Below are positions 2,492-25,958 of a stretch of 27,839 nucleotides of DNA, piece after piece. The position numbers and the translations under genes were made by a program. How positions within the stretch are numbered: position 1 is the stretch's first letter; each line of letters starts with the position of its first letter. The notes under the pieces were generated by a model. The model saw only the letters and a program-made list of their open reading frames with translations. It was not told where the DNA came from and ran no database searches. This DNA comes from a phage: assembly GCA_023859445.1 (NCBI GenBank), contig GCA_023859445.1_4337.1; one strand, given 5' to 3'.

Positions 2492-2521
2492 TTGCACACC
2501 ACAACATAATAGGGTACTATT
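2492..2521 (+). promoter_or_regulatory. Conserved phage promoter, copy 1 (TTGCAC-N17-TACTAT; palindrome AATAGGGTACTATT)
   Basis: -35 2492-2497, -10 2515-2520, palindrome 2508-2521; 35 nt upstream of the 2555 gene. Confidence 0.5.
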
Positions 2522-3785: not shown

Positions 3786-3815
3786 TTGCACACTAAGATA
3801 GAATAGGCTACTATT
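3786..3815 (+). promoter_or_regulatory. Conserved phage promoter, copy 2 (TTGCAC-N17-TACTAT; palindrome AATAGGCTACTATT)
   Basis: -35 3786-3791, -10 3809-3814, palindrome 3802-3815; near-identical to copy 1 over about 35 bp including downstream AAACGAGA. Confidence 0.5.
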
Positions 3816-13171: not shown

Positions 13172-13273
13172 TCAAAGTTCACCATTCCCGCTATCTGCGT
13201 CCTCGACCCCGCTAACAGCCCACACAAACAATCCTAAATTAACCAGTAACACAAATGAAATTGCTACCATCAT
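13172..13273 (-). CDS. Small single-pass membrane peptide (33 aa: MMVAISFVLLVNLGLFVWAVSGVEDADSGNGEL)
   Basis: Minus-strand ATGATG at 13273/13270, SD GGAGG 5 nt upstream, own copy of the conserved promoter upstream and the bidirectional terminator downstream; hydrophobic core with acidic tail. Confidence 0.5.
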   Translation of the reverse strand: MMVAISFVLLVNLGLFVWAVSGVEDADSGNGEL

Positions 13274-13298
13274 AACCACCTCCACTATACGTTTACTT

Positions 13299-13328
13299 AA
13301 TAGTACCCTATTATGTTGGTGTCTGCAA
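13299..13328 (-). promoter_or_regulatory. Conserved phage promoter, copy 3 (TTGCAG-N17-TACTAT, minus strand)
   Basis: -35 complement of 13323-13328, -10 complement of 13300-13305; palindrome AATAGTACCCTATT at 13299-13312. Confidence 0.5.
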
Positions 13329-13342
13329 ACTATTTGTTTACG

Positions 13343-13394
13343 TATTCCAGTTATTCCACTCAATTGTAAATGTTGGAATAAGCTATTCGAATAG
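13343..13394. promoter_or_regulatory. Operator-like array of TATTCCA/TGGAATA half-sites plus 12-bp palindrome CTATTCGAATAG
   Basis: TATTCCA 13343-13349 and 13352-13358, TGGAATA 13374-13380 (8-bp IR with 15-nt spacer), palindrome 13383-13394; lies between divergent promoters. Confidence 0.4.
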
Positions 13395-18028: not shown

Positions 18029-18441
18029 TGGGCTACTTTGAGGACTTAACAAAAGCGTTCGATGTTCCGCTGGTAGCCTTCGGAACCGCCAACGGCATCA
18101 AGGTCGCGCTTGAAAACATCGACGCGCCGACGTCAACCGATACGCCATATCTGGCAAGTTACATGTTACTGGCGGATACCGAGCAAGCAGATTTGTTCTT
18201 CACGGAACAACGCGCGGGTGTTTATCAGGTCGACATTAACTACGCATCGGTGAAAGGTAGCGCGCCAATCAATAAAATGGCAGACTTACTTAACACGGCA
18301 TTCAAAGCAGGTAAGTCATTTTCTCGTAACGACATCTGCGCCGAGGTTCAATCGGTTAGCCTGGGGCCGCTGATTGTAGAAAACGGATGGGCCAAACGAC
18401 CATTGTCAATTAACTTTATTGCATTCACCAAGAGGCTGTGA
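18025..18441 (+). CDS. Tail terminator / tail completion protein (putative), 138 aa
   Basis: ORF track; ATGA overlap; located immediately before the major tail gene. Confidence 0.4.
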   Translation: MMGYFEDLTKAFDVPLVAFGTANGIKVALENIDAPTSTDTPYLASYMLLADTEQADLFFTEQRAGVYQVDINYASVKGSAPINKMADLLNTAFKAGKSFSRNDICAEVQSVSLGPLIVENGWAKRPLSINFIAFTKRL

Positions 18442-18443
18442 AT

Positions 18444-19610
18444 ATGGCTACAACTCCTTTTAAGGGCGCGAATACTGCGCAATTCTATGTGGCAGAAACT
18501 ACCCCTGGCGTAACACCGACTAACCCGGTCTGGTCGCCATTGCGTAACACAGGTGGCGTTCCTGCCATTACCCGCGACACGCTGACCTCCAACGAACTGG
18601 ACGGCAGCCGTGAAACTACATCCATCCGCACCGGTAACAAACAGGTTAGCGGTGAATACGCGATCGAGCTTAGCTCGAAAAGCCAGGATGACTGGCTGGC
18701 TGGTGCTTTAGGCTCTACGTGGCAATCCGGTGTTTCCCTGTCCAGTCTGTCGATTACCGTCGCACCCGCGGGCAAGACGTTCACACGCGCTACCGGCAGT
18801 TTTATCACTGACGGAGTTGGGGTAGGCGACCTGATTGCATTTACCGATTTAACAGGCGATAACGCAAAACCATTTATTGTTACTGCAGTAACGGCTACGG
18901 TTGTTACCGGTGCGGGCATCCAACACACCCTGACCACCGAGACAAAAACTAGTAAGGCTAAAACCGGCGACACGCTGGAAACCGGTAACACGTGTAAGAC
19001 GTTCTCTATCCTTACCTGGTACAAAGGCCAGTGCGGCGGTACTGACGCGTACACGTTAACCAAAGGCGTGGAAGTTTCTGGTTTTACCATCGAACAGGCT
19101 GTTAACGCGATGGTAACTGGCAGCTTCCCATTCATCGGTCGCAGTCAGGAGATTCTCACTACGCCGCCGACCGGTTCCAACTTCTCATCTGTTACTTTTG
19201 GTGATGAGCCGTTCTCTTCGGTTGACGTTTCCGTGTTCGATGGCTCTACGCCGTTGCGTTGTGATAGCCTTACCATCACCAACGACAACAGCGCGTCCGC
19301 ACAGTTCGAACTCGGCAACACTAACGTAGCGTTTGTGGAGCGTAGCCGAGCAGCTAACACCTTCTCCATCTCCGGTAAGCTGTACGACATGGCGATGATT
19401 CAGAAGTTTATCAACGAGCAGCAGGTGGAGATTAACTCTATTCTGGCGGGGGTAAACGGGGCTATGTCTTTCAGTTTGAAACGTGCAGAACTTACGGCGG
19501 TTACACCTGAGATTGGAGGACCTGAGTCAATCACTCAGTCTATTGAAGGCCAGGCTACTGGCAACCAGTACCAGTCGTCTATTGTTATTCAGCGTATCAC
19601 ATACGCATAA
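18444..19610 (+). CDS. Major tail (tube) protein (putative), 389 aa
   Basis: ATG 18444 (SD AAGAGG 8 nt upstream) within track ORF 18438-19610; followed by strong terminator; by synteny. Confidence 0.55.
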   Translation: MATTPFKGANTAQFYVAETTPGVTPTNPVWSPLRNTGGVPAITRDTLTSNELDGSRETTSIRTGNKQVSGEYAIELSSKSQDDWLAGALGSTWQSGVSLSSLSITVAPAGKTFTRATGSFITDGVGVGDLIAFTDLTGDNAKPFIVTAVTATVVTGAGIQHTLTTETKTSKAKTGDTLETGNTCKTFSILTWYKGQCGGTDAYTLTKGVEVSGFTIEQAVNAMVTGSFPFIGRSQEILTTPPTGSNFSSVTFGDEPFSSVDVSVFDGSTPLRCDSLTITNDNSASAQFELGNTNVAFVERSRAANTFSISGKLYDMAMIQKFINEQQVEINSILAGVNGAMSFSLKRAELTAVTPEIGGPESITQSIEGQATGNQYQSSIVIQRITYA

Positions 19611-19614
19611 AACT

Positions 19615-19637
19615 AAGGCCCCGTTTGGGGCCTTTTT
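19615..19637. terminator. Bidirectional intrinsic terminator between convergent major tail gene and minus-strand operon
   Basis: Stem AAGGCCCC/GGGGCCTT, loop GTTT, flanked by AAAACT and TTTTT; stop of minus gene (19639) sits in the T-tract. Confidence 0.75.
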
Positions 19638-19638
19638 C

Positions 19639-20193
19639 TTACAAACCTAATCTTAAAGCAATGCCTATAGCGTTCGATTTAACGTAACCCGGTATGATGT
19701 AGGTGTCATAATCTTTTACACCATCAATATCGTACAGGTAACCGCGGCTGTCCCCTTCAAACGTATGGCCGTCTCTGTGCAAGCGGACGATTCTCACATC
19801 ATGCCACGCGGCAACGATAGGGGCTACTTCGCTGGCGAACCCGCCATCAGACACCACAAAAACTTCGTCGCCGTCGGGCAAGTTTCCGGCAAGATACTTA
19901 CCGAAATAATCATCACCGAATACCGGTTTAATGAATTGCTCGGAAATGGCAATCATGAACTGACGCCGAGACAACCCGTTAAGGAAACCCTCTGGCTTTT
20001 CTTTCCGCGCCCGGTCGTCGTAGCCGTCGAGAAACTCGCGGTAAGCATCCTGGCCTAACGCAGCCATAGCAATATTGAACATCGGATTCTTGAAACTGGC
20101 GACACCCTTCGCAAAGCCCATTTCTACCAGCGCCCTAGCAAGTGTGTCTTTCCCGCAGCCCGCAGGACCATTAAGAATAATTACCTTAGCCAT
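19639..20193 (-). CDS. P-loop nucleotide kinase (dNMP kinase-like; possibly polynucleotide 5'-kinase), 184 aa
   Basis: ORF track; N-terminal Walker A LNGPAGCGKDT, similar in pattern to phage dNMP kinase GKDT P-loops. Confidence 0.65.
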   Translation of the reverse strand: MAKVIILNGPAGCGKDTLARALVEMGFAKGVASFKNPMFNIAMAALGQDAYREFLDGYDDRARKEKPEGFLNGLSRRQFMIAISEQFIKPVFGDDYFGKYLAGNLPDGDEVFVVSDGGFASEVAPIVAAWHDVRIVRLHRDGHTFEGDSRGYLYDIDGVKDYDTYIIPGYVKSNAIGIALRLGL

Positions 20194-20678
20194 TATTTAT
20201 CACTCCCATGTGGTTTTAAGTGTGTAGAGTTCCCGTTACAGTCGTATTCAGTAACTGCGTGAGTGGTTATGCCGAGTTCGCGGAAATGCTTTATTACCGC
20301 TGGAGAGTCGTCGAATGCACACAAGATTCTCTCCGGCCCAATAGCACGCAACACCTCTTCTTTAATTACGATGTCTTTTCTGTTGTCGTGTTTGCTGCGC
20401 ATGATTAACTGATAAAATTCGACGCGGTGGCGCTGCAACCACATTCTGGTTTCTTTTTCCGCGTCATCACTACGGCCTGTTAAGATAATAACGGCATAGC
20501 GACGATTAAGGGCGTTACACAGTTCGATGTTATCTTTAATGGGTGCATCGTCTTTGCACGCCATGTTAAATGGTTTCCACGCCCAGGTTTCGCCGTAGTT
20601 ATCTTTCGGCAGCAGGTGTAAACGATGAGTACCATCTGCCAATGTCCCGTCTAAATCGAAAATCACAATATCTTTCAT
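20193..20678 (-). CDS. HAD-superfamily phosphatase (polynucleotide 3'-phosphatase / nucleotidase-like), 161 aa
   Basis: ORF track; HAD motif I FDLDGTL, motif II ILTGRS, C-terminal FDDS; pattern resembles the T4 Pnk phosphatase domain as recalled from memory. Confidence 0.65.
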   Translation of the reverse strand: MKDIVIFDLDGTLADGTHRLHLLPKDNYGETWAWKPFNMACKDDAPIKDNIELCNALNRRYAVIILTGRSDDAEKETRMWLQRHRVEFYQLIMRSKHDNRKDIVIKEEVLRAIGPERILCAFDDSPAVIKHFRELGITTHAVTEYDCNGNSTHLKPHGSDK

Positions 20679-21805
20679 CCAAGCATCTCCGGTGAAATAG
20701 TTAAACGTGCGACCTCGCCATATTCGGCGCTATAAGTAATTACGTTTGCACTGCGGCCCGACATCCACCCACCGCGGGAGGCATATGCATCTTTAGCCGC
20801 GAGAGTGCGGTGTTGCTCAACAATCATGTTACGGCTTTCTATAATCTTTTGGTGGTGCAGGTGACCCACGTGGGCGTAGCTGTAAACACTCTCGCCGAAC
20901 GCTTTGCGGAACTTGGCGATCATAACCGGTTCGATAGCGTCGAATCGTGCTTTATGCCCATGATGGAAGAACAGCGTCGTTTTGCCGTGTTGCACCATCT
21001 TGTAAACATCCGGCGACGTATCGACGAACACACGCGGCTCATTGTCGTACAGCGTACTAAACATCTCAGCTAACCAAATCATTCCGCTTTCGTCGTGGTT
21101 ACCTTGCACGATAAGCAAGCGAACATTTTTATGTTTAACGAGAGCCATATCAATGACACGGCGGACCATACGAATCATGTAGCGTACAAGTTTCTGATAG
21201 CGGGTGTCAGCGTCAAGAACATGACCACTGGCAGGTGTAACGGCGTCCAGACTATCGAAATGCGCAAGGTCGCCCAGCAGATTAATAACTCCTGTTCCGG
21301 CATCCGGTGCTTTCTGGAACGCTGCGTCGAACCAGCGGGAGAACAGGTCTTCCGCAATCTTCATGTCCCAGTCGTCGCCGCTCTCGTCAGCCCAGGCCAG
21401 CATACCGAGATGGAAATCAGACACAGTGTAAAGGTTGAGTAGCTTGTCGTCTCGTTTGGCGCGAACGGCTTTAACAGGTGCAACTGGTGTAATCTCCGAC
21501 TTCATGCCTTCGATTACGGCTTTCATCAATTCAACCTGACGTTCGGCATCGGTGTCGGTCTTAACCCATTGCAACTTGGTGTTGCCAAACTCATCCACCA
21601 GTGATGACGTTCCTTTAATCTTGTAGCCGTCCGGCACAAGGTGACTAACGTCGCGCCCGTGGCCTACGCCTTTCTTAGCCAGCTTCGCTTTACGGATACG
21701 GATAACGCGGTCAGAGATGCCGTATTTACGGGCGATGTCGATATTCTTCATACCGGCGTTCAATTCTTCCTGTAACTGTTCGTCGGTTATTTTCTTCCTG
21801 GCCAT
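20675..21805 (-). CDS. Calcineurin-like metallophosphoesterase with N-terminal HTH-like domain (376 aa)
   Basis: ORF track; phosphoesterase motifs D-x-H (SDFHLG), GD..D (GDLAHFD), GNHDE, HHGH, GHLHH; N-terminal segment NIDIARKYGISDRVIRIRKAKL looks helix-turn-helix. Confidence 0.7.
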   Translation of the reverse strand: MARKKITDEQLQEELNAGMKNIDIARKYGISDRVIRIRKAKLAKKGVGHGRDVSHLVPDGYKIKGTSSLVDEFGNTKLQWVKTDTDAERQVELMKAVIEGMKSEITPVAPVKAVRAKRDDKLLNLYTVSDFHLGMLAWADESGDDWDMKIAEDLFSRWFDAAFQKAPDAGTGVINLLGDLAHFDSLDAVTPASGHVLDADTRYQKLVRYMIRMVRRVIDMALVKHKNVRLLIVQGNHDESGMIWLAEMFSTLYDNEPRVFVDTSPDVYKMVQHGKTTLFFHHGHKARFDAIEPVMIAKFRKAFGESVYSYAHVGHLHHQKIIESRNMIVEQHRTLAAKDAYASRGGWMSGRSANVITYSAEYGEVARLTISPEMLG

Positions 21806-21849
21806 GCTTATTCCTCGTGTTTAGGATTTGTCTTATTTAACTACAATAG

Positions 21850-22176
21850 CTATTTACTTTCCACTCCCGCCGCCCAAGCTAGAGAGACGATTTGTAAGCG
21901 AGTAGCCACCAATGCGCTGCTGTAGCCTGGTGATTTCATGTCCACAGAACTCATGACAAGGCCTGTTACAAGGTCGAAGCTAACCCCTGCTGCTCCTGCT
22001 GAATACGCGGCCTCACATTCTTTAATAACCGCATTTTTAAACATTTTTTGCGCGGCTACAGGGGCGCTTTCTATTAAACCCGCAGTTATTAATGGGGTTT
22101 CAGAATAAATCTGCTCACAAGTGGAACCTACCGCAGTAAAAGATATGAAACCTAAAGCTAAGATTAATGTACGCAT
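21850..22176 (-). CDS. Small secreted/periplasmic protein with N-terminal signal peptide (108 aa)
   Basis: ORF track; MRTLILALGFISFTAVGSTCEQ looks like a cleavable signal peptide (no canonical lipobox); SD AAGGAA; first gene after conserved promoter copy 4. Confidence 0.5.
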   Translation of the reverse strand: MRTLILALGFISFTAVGSTCEQIYSETPLITAGLIESAPVAAQKMFKNAVIKECEAAYSAGAAGVSFDLVTGLVMSSVDMKSPGYSSALVATRLQIVSLAWAAGVESK

Positions 22177-22217
22177 TTGTTAATTCCTTATTTGAGATAA
22201 CATTGTTGGTGTAAGTG

Positions 22218-22247
22218 AATAGTACCCTATTATATTTGGGTGCGCAA
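22218..22247 (-). promoter_or_regulatory. Conserved phage promoter, copy 4 (TTGCGC-N17-TACTAT, minus strand)
   Basis: -35 complement of 22242-22247, -10 complement of 22219-22224, palindrome AATAGTACCCTATT 22218-22231; drives the minus-strand accessory operon. Confidence 0.5.
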
Positions 22248-22355
22248 GTAGTGTGTTAGAATAATTTTGCACCTAGTGTCGCGCACGAAAAGCGGATGGT
22301 TACCGCCTGGTGCATTTAAGCCAAACCAACAACCTCTTAACCAAAGGATTAAAGA

Positions 22356-22772
22356 ATGAAACTGTCAGACTTCTACTTTGCGTCCAAACACGCAGCAGGA
22401 ACCAAGATGCCGATTCTGTTGCCAGACGGCAGCGATTCCGGCGAATGGCTACAGGTCATGGGGCCAGATTGCGACGACTCCATCGCAGCTGCTAAAGACT
22501 TCATCTCTGCTTATCGCGACATCCTGGACAACCTGAAGCCGCTTGACGCTGAGTGCCGCGAGAAAGGCGACTGGGCTAGATATAACACTGAGTTGAACAG
22601 TGAACTGGCGAAGCTGAATGATGCGCTTGCCGCCGTTGTAGTGATAGGCTGGTCCTTCGACGAGAAGTTCACTAAGAAGGCGCTTGTTAAACTACTCAAG
22701 GAATACAAAGGCTTAGGTGGTGCAGTGGCCCAGCATCACGCAGAGAGCCGCAAAGCGCTGTCGGTAAAGTAG
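22356..22772 (+). CDS. Tail assembly chaperone (putative), 138 aa
   Basis: ORF track; SD AAAGGA; acidic protein immediately upstream of tape measure region; by synteny. Confidence 0.5.
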   Translation: MKLSDFYFASKHAAGTKMPILLPDGSDSGEWLQVMGPDCDDSIAAAKDFISAYRDILDNLKPLDAECREKGDWARYNTELNSELAKLNDALAAVVVIGWSFDEKFTKKALVKLLKEYKGLGGAVAQHHAESRKALSVK

Positions 22773-25903: not shown

Positions 25904-25923
25904 ACCAACCTCGCCCTTGTTTT

Positions 25924-25958
25924 AATAGCATACTATTCAACCATATGGTATCTGTCAA
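25924..25958 (-). promoter_or_regulatory. Promoter for the endonuclease-like gene (TTGACA-17-TAGTAT) carrying the palindrome AATAGCATACTATT
   Basis: -35 complement of 25953-25958, -10 complement of 25930-25935; palindrome 25924-25937 (copy 5 of the family). Confidence 0.5.

Follow-up and report, generated by a model that had tools for sequence, protein, structure and literature searches.

An HTH-metallophosphoesterase gene with two exchangeable accessory slots, antisense in the tail module of a Kagunavirus phage, and its possible role in DNA and nucleotide metabolism

Phage contig GCA_023859445.1_4337.1 (assembly GCA_023859445.1), analysed here as one stretch of 27,839 nt (the window), contains four minus-strand genes embedded in a tail module that runs in the opposite direction. 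They encode a protein with a signal-like N-terminus, an HTH-metallophosphoesterase (MPE), an HAD phosphatase and a P-loop kinase (Table 1). Comparison with relatives showed that this unit is built around an MPE gene that is always present and two slots whose contents are exchanged, and is not a fixed four-gene operon. Based on family identities and genomic contexts, there is about an even chance that it is an accessory transcription unit of Kagunavirus phages for DNA and nucleotide metabolism, contributing to DNA breakdown and to deoxynucleotide supply for replication. An initial annotation, made from the letters of the window, had described a four-gene operon whose kinase, HAD protein and MPE formed the trio of activities of Pnk/Pnkp end-healing systems. 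Its four minus-strand open reading frames (ORFs) were confirmed from the ORF list, and its domain labels (secreted protein, HTH-metallophosphoesterase, HAD phosphatase and P-loop kinase) agreed with domain searches and models. The end-healing trio was mostly unsupported, with a kinase of T4 gp1 type, an MPE that seems to resemble DP1, SbcD and Mre11, no ligase found, and an HAD protein that alone is of Pnkp type.

Along its entire length, region 19400–22500 was 99.5 % identical to Escherichia phage MirsaeidiM_Esher4; it matched 199 phage records, mainly from Escherichia and Salmonella phages of Kagunavirus/Guernseyvirinae type (K1G, K1H, fKuEco01), and the window is assigned by this similarity to a Kagunavirus, K1G-type coliphage. 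Labels in the matched records listed included 'metallophosphoesterase / DNA repair exonuclease', 'polynucleotide kinase/phosphatase' and 'deoxynucleotide kinase / ATP-binding protein', with 'superinfection immunity protein' in the first position. Dozens of records already carry annotations for these genes, and a description of the same cassette in T1-like phages has been published; as found, the unit is an ordinary known feature of K1G/Jersey-type and T1-type phages.

The distribution of the four genes was determined in 80 viral contigs recovered with the MPE, all of which contained the MPE gene, and slot contents were counted in loci with adequate flanks (38, 11 and 21 loci at increasing distance). 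Among the 38 close, Kagunavirus-level loci, the slot downstream of the MPE gene was occupied by the HAD and kinase genes in 16 and by a gene for a 76-aa protein (phrog_2452) in 21, with one locus having neither. The upstream slot contained the gene for the 108-aa secreted protein in 10 loci and that for an Imm_superinfect membrane protein in 26, with two having neither. The two slots assorted independently, while the HAD and kinase genes were always co-inherited among these close relatives. None of the four accessory genes was detected in 11 loci with approximately 60–85 % MPE identity, mostly of Jersey type (~75 %); among 21 more distant loci (MPE identity below ~60 %), eight had the HAD gene and three the kinase gene. 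The boundaries of the proposed operon were real, but its composition was not fixed, as the slots varied across the 38 close relatives.

The 76-aa gene is absent from the window and strictly alternates with the HAD and kinase genes downstream of the MPE gene (L009, 7315–7545; L012, 6385–6615; and 19 other Kagunavirus loci). Its product resembles the C-terminal part of phage proteins of ~235–250 aa, some of which are labelled ATPase, and matched phrog_2452 only, with no match in Pfam (even at E 10) or PDB. A role as a T7 gp1.7/DUF3310-type nucleotide kinase that replaces the P-loop kinase was considered and dropped for want of Pfam (E 10) or PDB support. Nor does this protein correspond to the extension of longer kinase homologues, which is N-terminal. 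The either/or exchange of the HAD–kinase pair with the 76-aa gene in near-identical genomes provides natural isogenic comparisons, which could show whether the cassette has a role in nucleotide supply, DNA repair or counter-defence.

The kinase belongs firmly, as judged from its homologies, to the T4 gp1 family of deoxynucleoside monophosphate (dNMP) kinases and not to the Pnk type. This placement derives from four observations. The protein matched PHROG 139 'dNMP kinase' (2.3e-44). Its profile aligned with T4 gp1 over 137 columns (E 2e-5), pairing GPAGCGKDT with GVKRSGKDT, compared with only 28 columns, at the P-loop, for T4 Pnkp. An AlphaFold2 model from a 64-sequence alignment had a predicted local distance difference test (pLDDT) score of 94, and sequence and fold homology to the gp1 family extended over the full length with a GxxxxGKD/T P-loop; a Pnk-type 5'-OH polynucleotide kinase domain was not found in this protein. 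Lastly, the family is associated with DNA-precursor or replication genes: three distant homologues (39–44 % identity, on long contigs) adjoin DNA polymerase A; dCMP deaminase is a further neighbour in two cases, and in one case DUF4406 is adjacent and a DNA ligase lies two genes downstream. When PDB was searched with the kinase, by single sequence and by profile, the only matches were to AAA+ proteins at the P-loop.

The HAD protein has a different affinity. It matched the Pfam family PF25109 HAD_PNKP (6.7e-20), has a motif I of D8-L-D10-G-T12, and in a PDB sequence search gave significant matches only to Pnkp1 (4xrp, 1.7e-6) and T4 Pnkp. A ten-member family profile aligned with residues 158–298 of T4 Pnkp over 128 columns (hhalign, probability 97.7 %, E 1.9e-12). 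Residues D8, D10, R19, R69, D102, K106, D123 and D124 were invariant and paired with D165, D167, R176, R213, D254, K258, D277 and D278 of T4 Pnkp; the list of residues essential in the T4 enzyme is reportedly that of Wang and Shuman from 2002. With a 3'-phosphatase domain homologous to T4 Pnkp residues ~157–301 and its catalytic Asp/Arg/Lys set, the HAD protein is by homology a genuine member of the Pnkp-type phosphatase clade, alone among the proteins of the unit. The phage stand-alone HAD proteins, however, have an insertion of ~16 residues directly after motif I that is without counterpart in T4 Pnkp. This insertion is common to the window protein and T5 Dmp, a characterised dNMP phosphatase, to which the HAD protein aligned over 69 N-terminal columns only (hhalign, probability 80 %, E 1.5e-5). 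A T1-like homologue also had a weak precomputed match to PF26880 Phage_T5_dNMPase. Homology is compatible with either a polynucleotide 3'-end or a mononucleotide as substrate and cannot decide between them. Of the two observations that the initial annotation had set against its end-healing proposal, a kinase that falls firmly with dNMP kinases was obtained, while an HAD protein acting as a 5'-nucleotidase on mononucleotides only was not established.

The features in common with T5 Dmp bear on an alternative in which the HAD protein would destroy certain (deoxy)nucleotides or a nucleotide signal and the kinase would boost others, either for selective remodelling of the pool, as in PBS2/SPO1-type phages or with T5 Dmp/Dnk, or to offset host defences that deplete deoxynucleoside triphosphates (dNTPs). 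Two further observations fit this alternative. In T7-RNAP podovirus-like contigs, genes for an MPE, a small ORF, an HAD protein and a dATP/dGTP diphosphohydrolase domain protein (PF18909, 2e-33) lie in that order upstream of a T7-type RNA polymerase gene, and the patchy distribution of the pair is typical of counter-defence cargo. Against it, no base-modification pathway beyond methyltransferases was annotated in the complete genome of a close relative (MT711525), and the four proteins had no match in PADLOC and resembled no known defence or anti-defence family. A literature search on dNMP kinases and defence yielded nothing of relevance. This alternative is regarded as distinctly unlikely. 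Of the two candidate functions proposed in the initial annotation, counter-defence and a role in the nucleotide pool, the second was the better supported.

A sealing enzyme was also sought. As initially reported, no ligase was found in the window, nor was one annotated in MT711525: T4 RnlA and two phage DNA ligases, used as tblastn queries against both (T4 Rnl2 was not among the queries), gave no match better than E 0.17. No partner RNA ligase was thus found; the ligase that accompanies the cassette in other lineages is a DNA ligase. The kinase and HAD protein are not a single polypeptide but two ORFs overlapping by 1 nt, and the arrangement of the Clostridium thermocellum type of Pnkp/Hen1 system, in which a lambda-phosphatase-type MPE is fused to a kinase and a ligase-like adenylyltransferase with Hen1, was not found. 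Healing by the kinase, HAD protein and MPE of 5'-OH and 2',3'-cyclic-phosphate RNA ends left by anticodon nucleases or other RNA-targeting defences is thereby deprived of its kinase, of the MPE analogy and of a ligase. The best-scoring solved relatives of the HAD protein are RNA-repair enzymes, namely Pnkp1 (of the Pnkp1-Rnl-Hen1 complex) and T4 Pnkp, and translation of the kinase gene is coupled to that of the HAD gene, yet RNA end-healing is considered very improbable. The HAD protein and the kinase, whose genes are coupled and always co-inherited among close relatives, might instead constitute a split, non-orthologous Pnkp, in which a dNMP-kinase fold has been recruited for 5'-OH ends and which, together with the HTH-MPE as nuclease and a host or phage DNA ligase, heals phage DNA (or RNA) ends damaged by defences. 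This proposal is very unlikely; if true, it would represent a new end-healing architecture that is exchangeable with a 76-aa protein.

The MPE matched PHROG 704 over its whole length (1.5e-167). Its model (pLDDT 78) consists of an N-terminal three-helix HTH of GerE/LuxR-like type (GerE/sigma-70 region 4; residues ~5–45), a small beta/alpha linker (beta-hairpin/helix) and the sandwich of a calcineurin-type MPE domain, in which the complete set of metal-binding motifs (DxH, GD, GNHD/E, H, GH, GHxH) was present. In 47 representatives with 31–50 % identity, residues D129, H131, G177, D178, N235, H236, H281, G313 and H316 were invariant, and G234, D237 and H314 were conserved in at least 90 %. The predicted fold appears nearest to MPEs of the PolD-DP1/SbcD/Mre11 nuclease type rather than to lambda phosphatase. 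A single-sequence PDB search gave nothing useful, a profile search gave weak GerE and SbcD matches only, and a BFVD fold search returned only uncharacterised phage MPEs. No Rad50/SbcC ATPase or polymerase catalytic partner was annotated in the complete relative genome; this MPE family instead carries its own N-terminal HTH. The MPE would most probably act, in a metal-dependent manner, as a DNA phosphodiesterase or exonuclease brought to DNA by its HTH.

This MPE family is large, with 4628 representatives at 50 % clustering and matches in 2035 of 50,697 phage records (~4 %). Proteins at least 80 % identical to the MPE occurred in 292 phage records and to the kinase in only 53. The MPE is also unusually conserved: the best 120 database matches were all at least 97 % identical, as compared with 82–99 % for the adjacent kinase within the same phage group. 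Between motifs II and III, residues 181–197 form a family-specific, near-invariant segment (H-x-D...T-P-x-S-G-H-x-L-D) with a pLDDT below 50, which may be a mobile substrate or capping loop.

Together, the HAD protein and the MPE raise DNA end repair as the main rival to nucleotide supply. The HAD protein would remove 3'-phosphates and the MPE would trim damaged or blocked ends where phage DNA had been nicked or broken in the course of replication or recombination or by host attack, with sealing by host LigA or, in lineages that encode one, a phage DNA ligase; the kinase would be an unrelated nucleotide supply enzyme or a 5'-end kinase. The close structural-family relationship of the HAD protein to the T4 Pnkp 3'-phosphatase, in which all aligned catalytic residues are kept, and the predicted similarity of the MPE to repair and proofreading nucleases are consistent with such a role. 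So is the gene order in one lineage (contigs L067 and L071), where endonuclease VII, MPE, HAD and kinase genes are directly followed by one for an ATP-dependent DNA ligase. However, the kinase is gp1-type rather than Pnk-type, no ligase was found in the window or the close relative, adjacency to a ligase is also normal for replication modules, and the HAD–kinase pair is optional among close relatives. DNA end repair is therefore judged unlikely.

The favoured explanation, DNA breakdown with deoxynucleotide supply, can be set out as follows. The unit would be transcribed leftward from a type of promoter element that also heads early small-gene clusters, and transcription would stop at a hairpin common to the converging tail tube gene, giving early-type expression although the unit is lodged in the late tail module. 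The MPE, brought to DNA by its HTH, would degrade or trim it, with host DNA as the obvious source; the HAD protein would remove 3'-phosphates from DNA ends or from (deoxy)nucleotides; and the kinase would turn 5'-dNMPs into deoxynucleoside diphosphates, with the products feeding the phage's own DNA polymerase A. The upstream slot would be a cell-envelope slot and the downstream slot would hold the translationally coupled pair of HAD phosphatase and dNMP kinase. Points in favour of this explanation are the prior annotation of the genes, the gp1 type of the kinase and the DNA polymerase A neighbours of its homologues, the surroundings of the HAD gene in the podovirus-like, endonuclease VII and T1-like lineages, the intact catalytic motifs and apparently nuclease-type fold of the MPE, the destruction of host DNA by two other phage MPEs, the Drexlerviridae survey discussed below, and the presence of the promoter-like element ahead of early small-gene clusters. 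Promoter activity and timing, MPE nuclease activity, HAD and kinase substrates and the salvage pathway are what we infer here.

Several points weigh against this explanation. The HAD protein is closer to the phosphatase domain of T4 Pnkp, a polynucleotide-end enzyme, than to T5 Dmp, and a nucleic-acid end is therefore an equally possible substrate. If the phosphatase and the kinase used the same dNMPs, they would work against each other to no effect; the model therefore requires that their substrates differ. Homology of the MPE to T5 A1 was not established (hhalign, probability 15 %, 21 columns around GNHD...S.WL). The HAD–kinase pair is absent from most close relatives, 21 of 38 having the 76-aa gene in its place; its role must be optional and the pair is not essential. 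Finally, temperate-like contigs have a lone MPE gene between lysis or nin-type genes and terminase, which is compatible with other roles. In one of these, the HTH-MPE would be mainly a DNA-binding regulator or a packaging or late-function factor, with the flanking genes as unrelated cargo on the same transcript. Its GerE/sigma-70 region 4 type HTH, a weak match to a 'late transcriptional activator' PHROG, the position in temperate-like contigs and the location of the gene immediately before the lysis cassette in T1-like phages (PMC13164509) accord with this idea. Conservation of the metal-binding residues across thousands of homologues argues for catalysis, gene position differs widely between lineages, and a primarily regulatory MPE is thus highly improbable.

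The arrangement of the genes makes leftward co-transcription of all four plausible. As initially reported, stops and starts overlap among the last three genes, by 4 nt at the MPE/HAD junction (ATGA) and at the HAD/kinase junction within TAATG, and a Shine–Dalgarno-like GGAG lies ~10 nt upstream at both junctions. The 108-aa gene is separated from the MPE gene by a 44-nt spacer with a GAGGAA ribosome-binding site. Its product matched phrog_14165 (2e-24) and has two cysteines and no canonical lipobox; no match was found in Pfam, NCBIfam or PADLOC. The claim of a bidirectional terminator was upheld by a scanner that detected a hairpin on both strands, with an 8 bp stem containing six G-C pairs. 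On the plus strand this hairpin (−15.5 kcal/mol, z −3.9) is followed by UUUUUCUU, a good U-tract, and on the minus strand (−19.1 kcal/mol, z −5.2) by AGUUUUAU, a weaker U-tract (UUUU); none of 200 shuffles folded as well. On the plus strand, this strong terminator behind the tail tube gene implies that a separate promoter within the 180-nt divergent region (22177–22355) would have to serve the chaperone, tape-measure and distal tail genes; no good sigma-70 match was found there on that strand.

Table 1. Coordinates of the antisense unit, its flanking genes and the predicted regulatory elements in the window
Feature	Position	Strand	Description
P-loop kinase (variable slot 2, second gene)	19639–20193	−	184 aa; GPAGCGKDT; T4 gp1 dNMP kinase family
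HAD phosphatase (variable slot 2, first gene)	20193–20678	−	161 aa; stand-alone; Pnkp phosphatase-domain family
HTH-MPE (constant core gene)	20675–21805	−	376 aa
Signal-like-sequence protein (variable slot 1)	21850–22176	−	108 aa; N-terminal signal-like h-region
Tail tube gene	18438–19610	+	Antisense flank of the unit
Chaperone and tape-measure genes	starts 22356, 22805, 23085	+	Antisense flank of the unit
Terminator-like hairpin	19615–19634	both	G+C-rich; between convergent tail tube and kinase genes
Promoter-like element	22219–22247	−	Heads the unit; TTGCGC-17 nt-TACTAT
Promoter-like core copy 1 (strong)	2506–2521		
Promoter-like core copy 2 (strong)	3800–3815		
Promoter-like core copy 3 (strong)	13299–13314		
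Promoter-like core copy 4 (strong)	22218–22233		
Promoter-like core copy 5 (weaker)	25922–25937		

The 'conserved promoter copy 4' of the initial annotation is real as a repeat. Its 16-nt core, AATAGTACCCTATTAT, occurred five times at three or fewer mismatches, four of these being strong copies, compared with 0.15 occurrences expected by chance. The whole element spans ~35 nt, reads CTTGCACAC...ATAATAGGGTACTATTCACTTA in its functional orientation and has a palindromic core, AATAG-N4-CTATT; the copies align. Each strong copy is situated 27–42 nt upstream of a start codon, at 2546 (+), 3846 (+), ~13272 (−) and 22176 (−), and reads AATAGTACCCTATTAT in reverse complement. For the copy at 22218–22247, which lies 42 nt upstream of the first ATG, the minus-strand reading is TTGCGC (22247–22242), a 17-nt spacer and TACTAT (22224–22219); a consensus scanner did not list this copy and its −35 hexamer matches at 3/6 positions only. 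The placement of all copies relative to start codons indicates that this copy is probably the promoter of the four-gene unit. In the complete relative genome, two further copies precede early-type small-gene clusters, one with solely same-direction genes around it. A plus-strand reading of the 22218 motif, as a promoter of the chaperone gene, was rejected after all copies were compared because the copy at 35889 in relative L005 is surrounded by plus-strand genes only, with a start codon at a distance of 30 nt when it is read in reverse complement. A literature search for Guernseyvirinae transcriptomes found nothing relevant.

The element thus precedes both early small-gene clusters and the antisense unit, and a phage regulator, for instance the DicA-like repressor that relatives are annotated as having, might use its palindrome as an operator. 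A second palindrome, AATAGCTATT, at 21845–21854 consists of the half-sites of the promoter core without the 4-nt spacer; it is located ahead of the MPE gene, in the intergenic spacer, where it overlaps the 108-aa gene's stop codon. Copy 3 of the element is directed at an unannotated small hydrophobic ORF, MMVAISFVLLVNLGLFVWAVSGVEDADSGNGEL (~13172–13272, minus strand, inside ORF 13172–13363), which has a GGAGGTGG ribosome-binding site, lies antisense in the head module and may be a second small antisense moron.

The wider relevance of the unit stems from its MPE, as two large siphovirus groups have the HTH-MPE gene among their core genes and it is found in ~4 % of sequenced phage genomes and in thousands of metagenomic clusters. 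Two phage MPEs shown by experiment to destroy host DNA provide points of comparison. T5 A1, a predicted metallophosphatase, is necessary and sufficient for digestion of the host chromosome, and the same pre-early region encodes the HAD-type dNMPase Dmp (bioRxiv 10.64898/2026.04.02.716235). Gp48 of mycobacteriophage A10ZJ24 is an MPE that is expressed early, has phosphodiesterase activity and disrupts the genomic DNA of its host (PMC12287305). If the window MPE degrades the host chromosome as these proteins do, this strategy would extend to many lineages of therapeutic coliphages and Salmonella phages. Gp48 belongs to a different phage group, and the passage that describes it makes no mention of an HTH fusion. 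The T5 region likewise combines, in one early transcription region, an MPE protein with an HAD phosphatase of the same broad clade, but homology between A1 and the window MPE is not demonstrable and the alignment with Dmp is limited to the N-terminal columns given above. T5 moreover dephosphorylates dNMPs rather than salvaging them, and has a separate dNMP kinase.

Both downstream-slot proteins have counterparts in T4. The window kinase is ~20 % identical to T4 gp1 (PDB 1DEK), is shorter (184 versus 241 aa) and lacks the large T4 insertion; T4 gene 1 likewise sits among structural genes. The HAD protein is homologous to the whole phosphatase domain of T4 Pnkp (pseT) with its catalytic residues kept, but differs in having no fused kinase, a neighbouring kinase that is not of Pnk type, no Rnl partner and the extra insertion of ~16 residues.

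The closest known system is the cassette of T1-like phages. In T1-like Klebsiella phage contigs, the triad follows genes for a helicase, VRR_NUC and Dam and precedes the lysis genes. A 2026 survey of 522 Drexlerviridae found a persistent 'DNA repair exonuclease' in 508 of them, with PNK and dNMP kinase as the commonest variable genes after the exonuclease, for which the authors' guess was 'enhancing nucleotide supply' (PMC13164509). The Drexlerviridae cassette (L003 and L004) comprises the same three families in the same order, an HTH-MPE of ~375 aa, an HAD_PNKP protein of ~168 aa and a kinase of ~192 aa, with ~41–55 % identity to the window proteins, and there too the MPE is persistent while the HAD protein and kinase are variable. 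That cassette lies on the same strand as its neighbours, after the replication genes and before the lysis cassette, whereas the unit in the window is antisense in the tail module and has an extra envelope-protein slot and its own predicted promoter and terminator.

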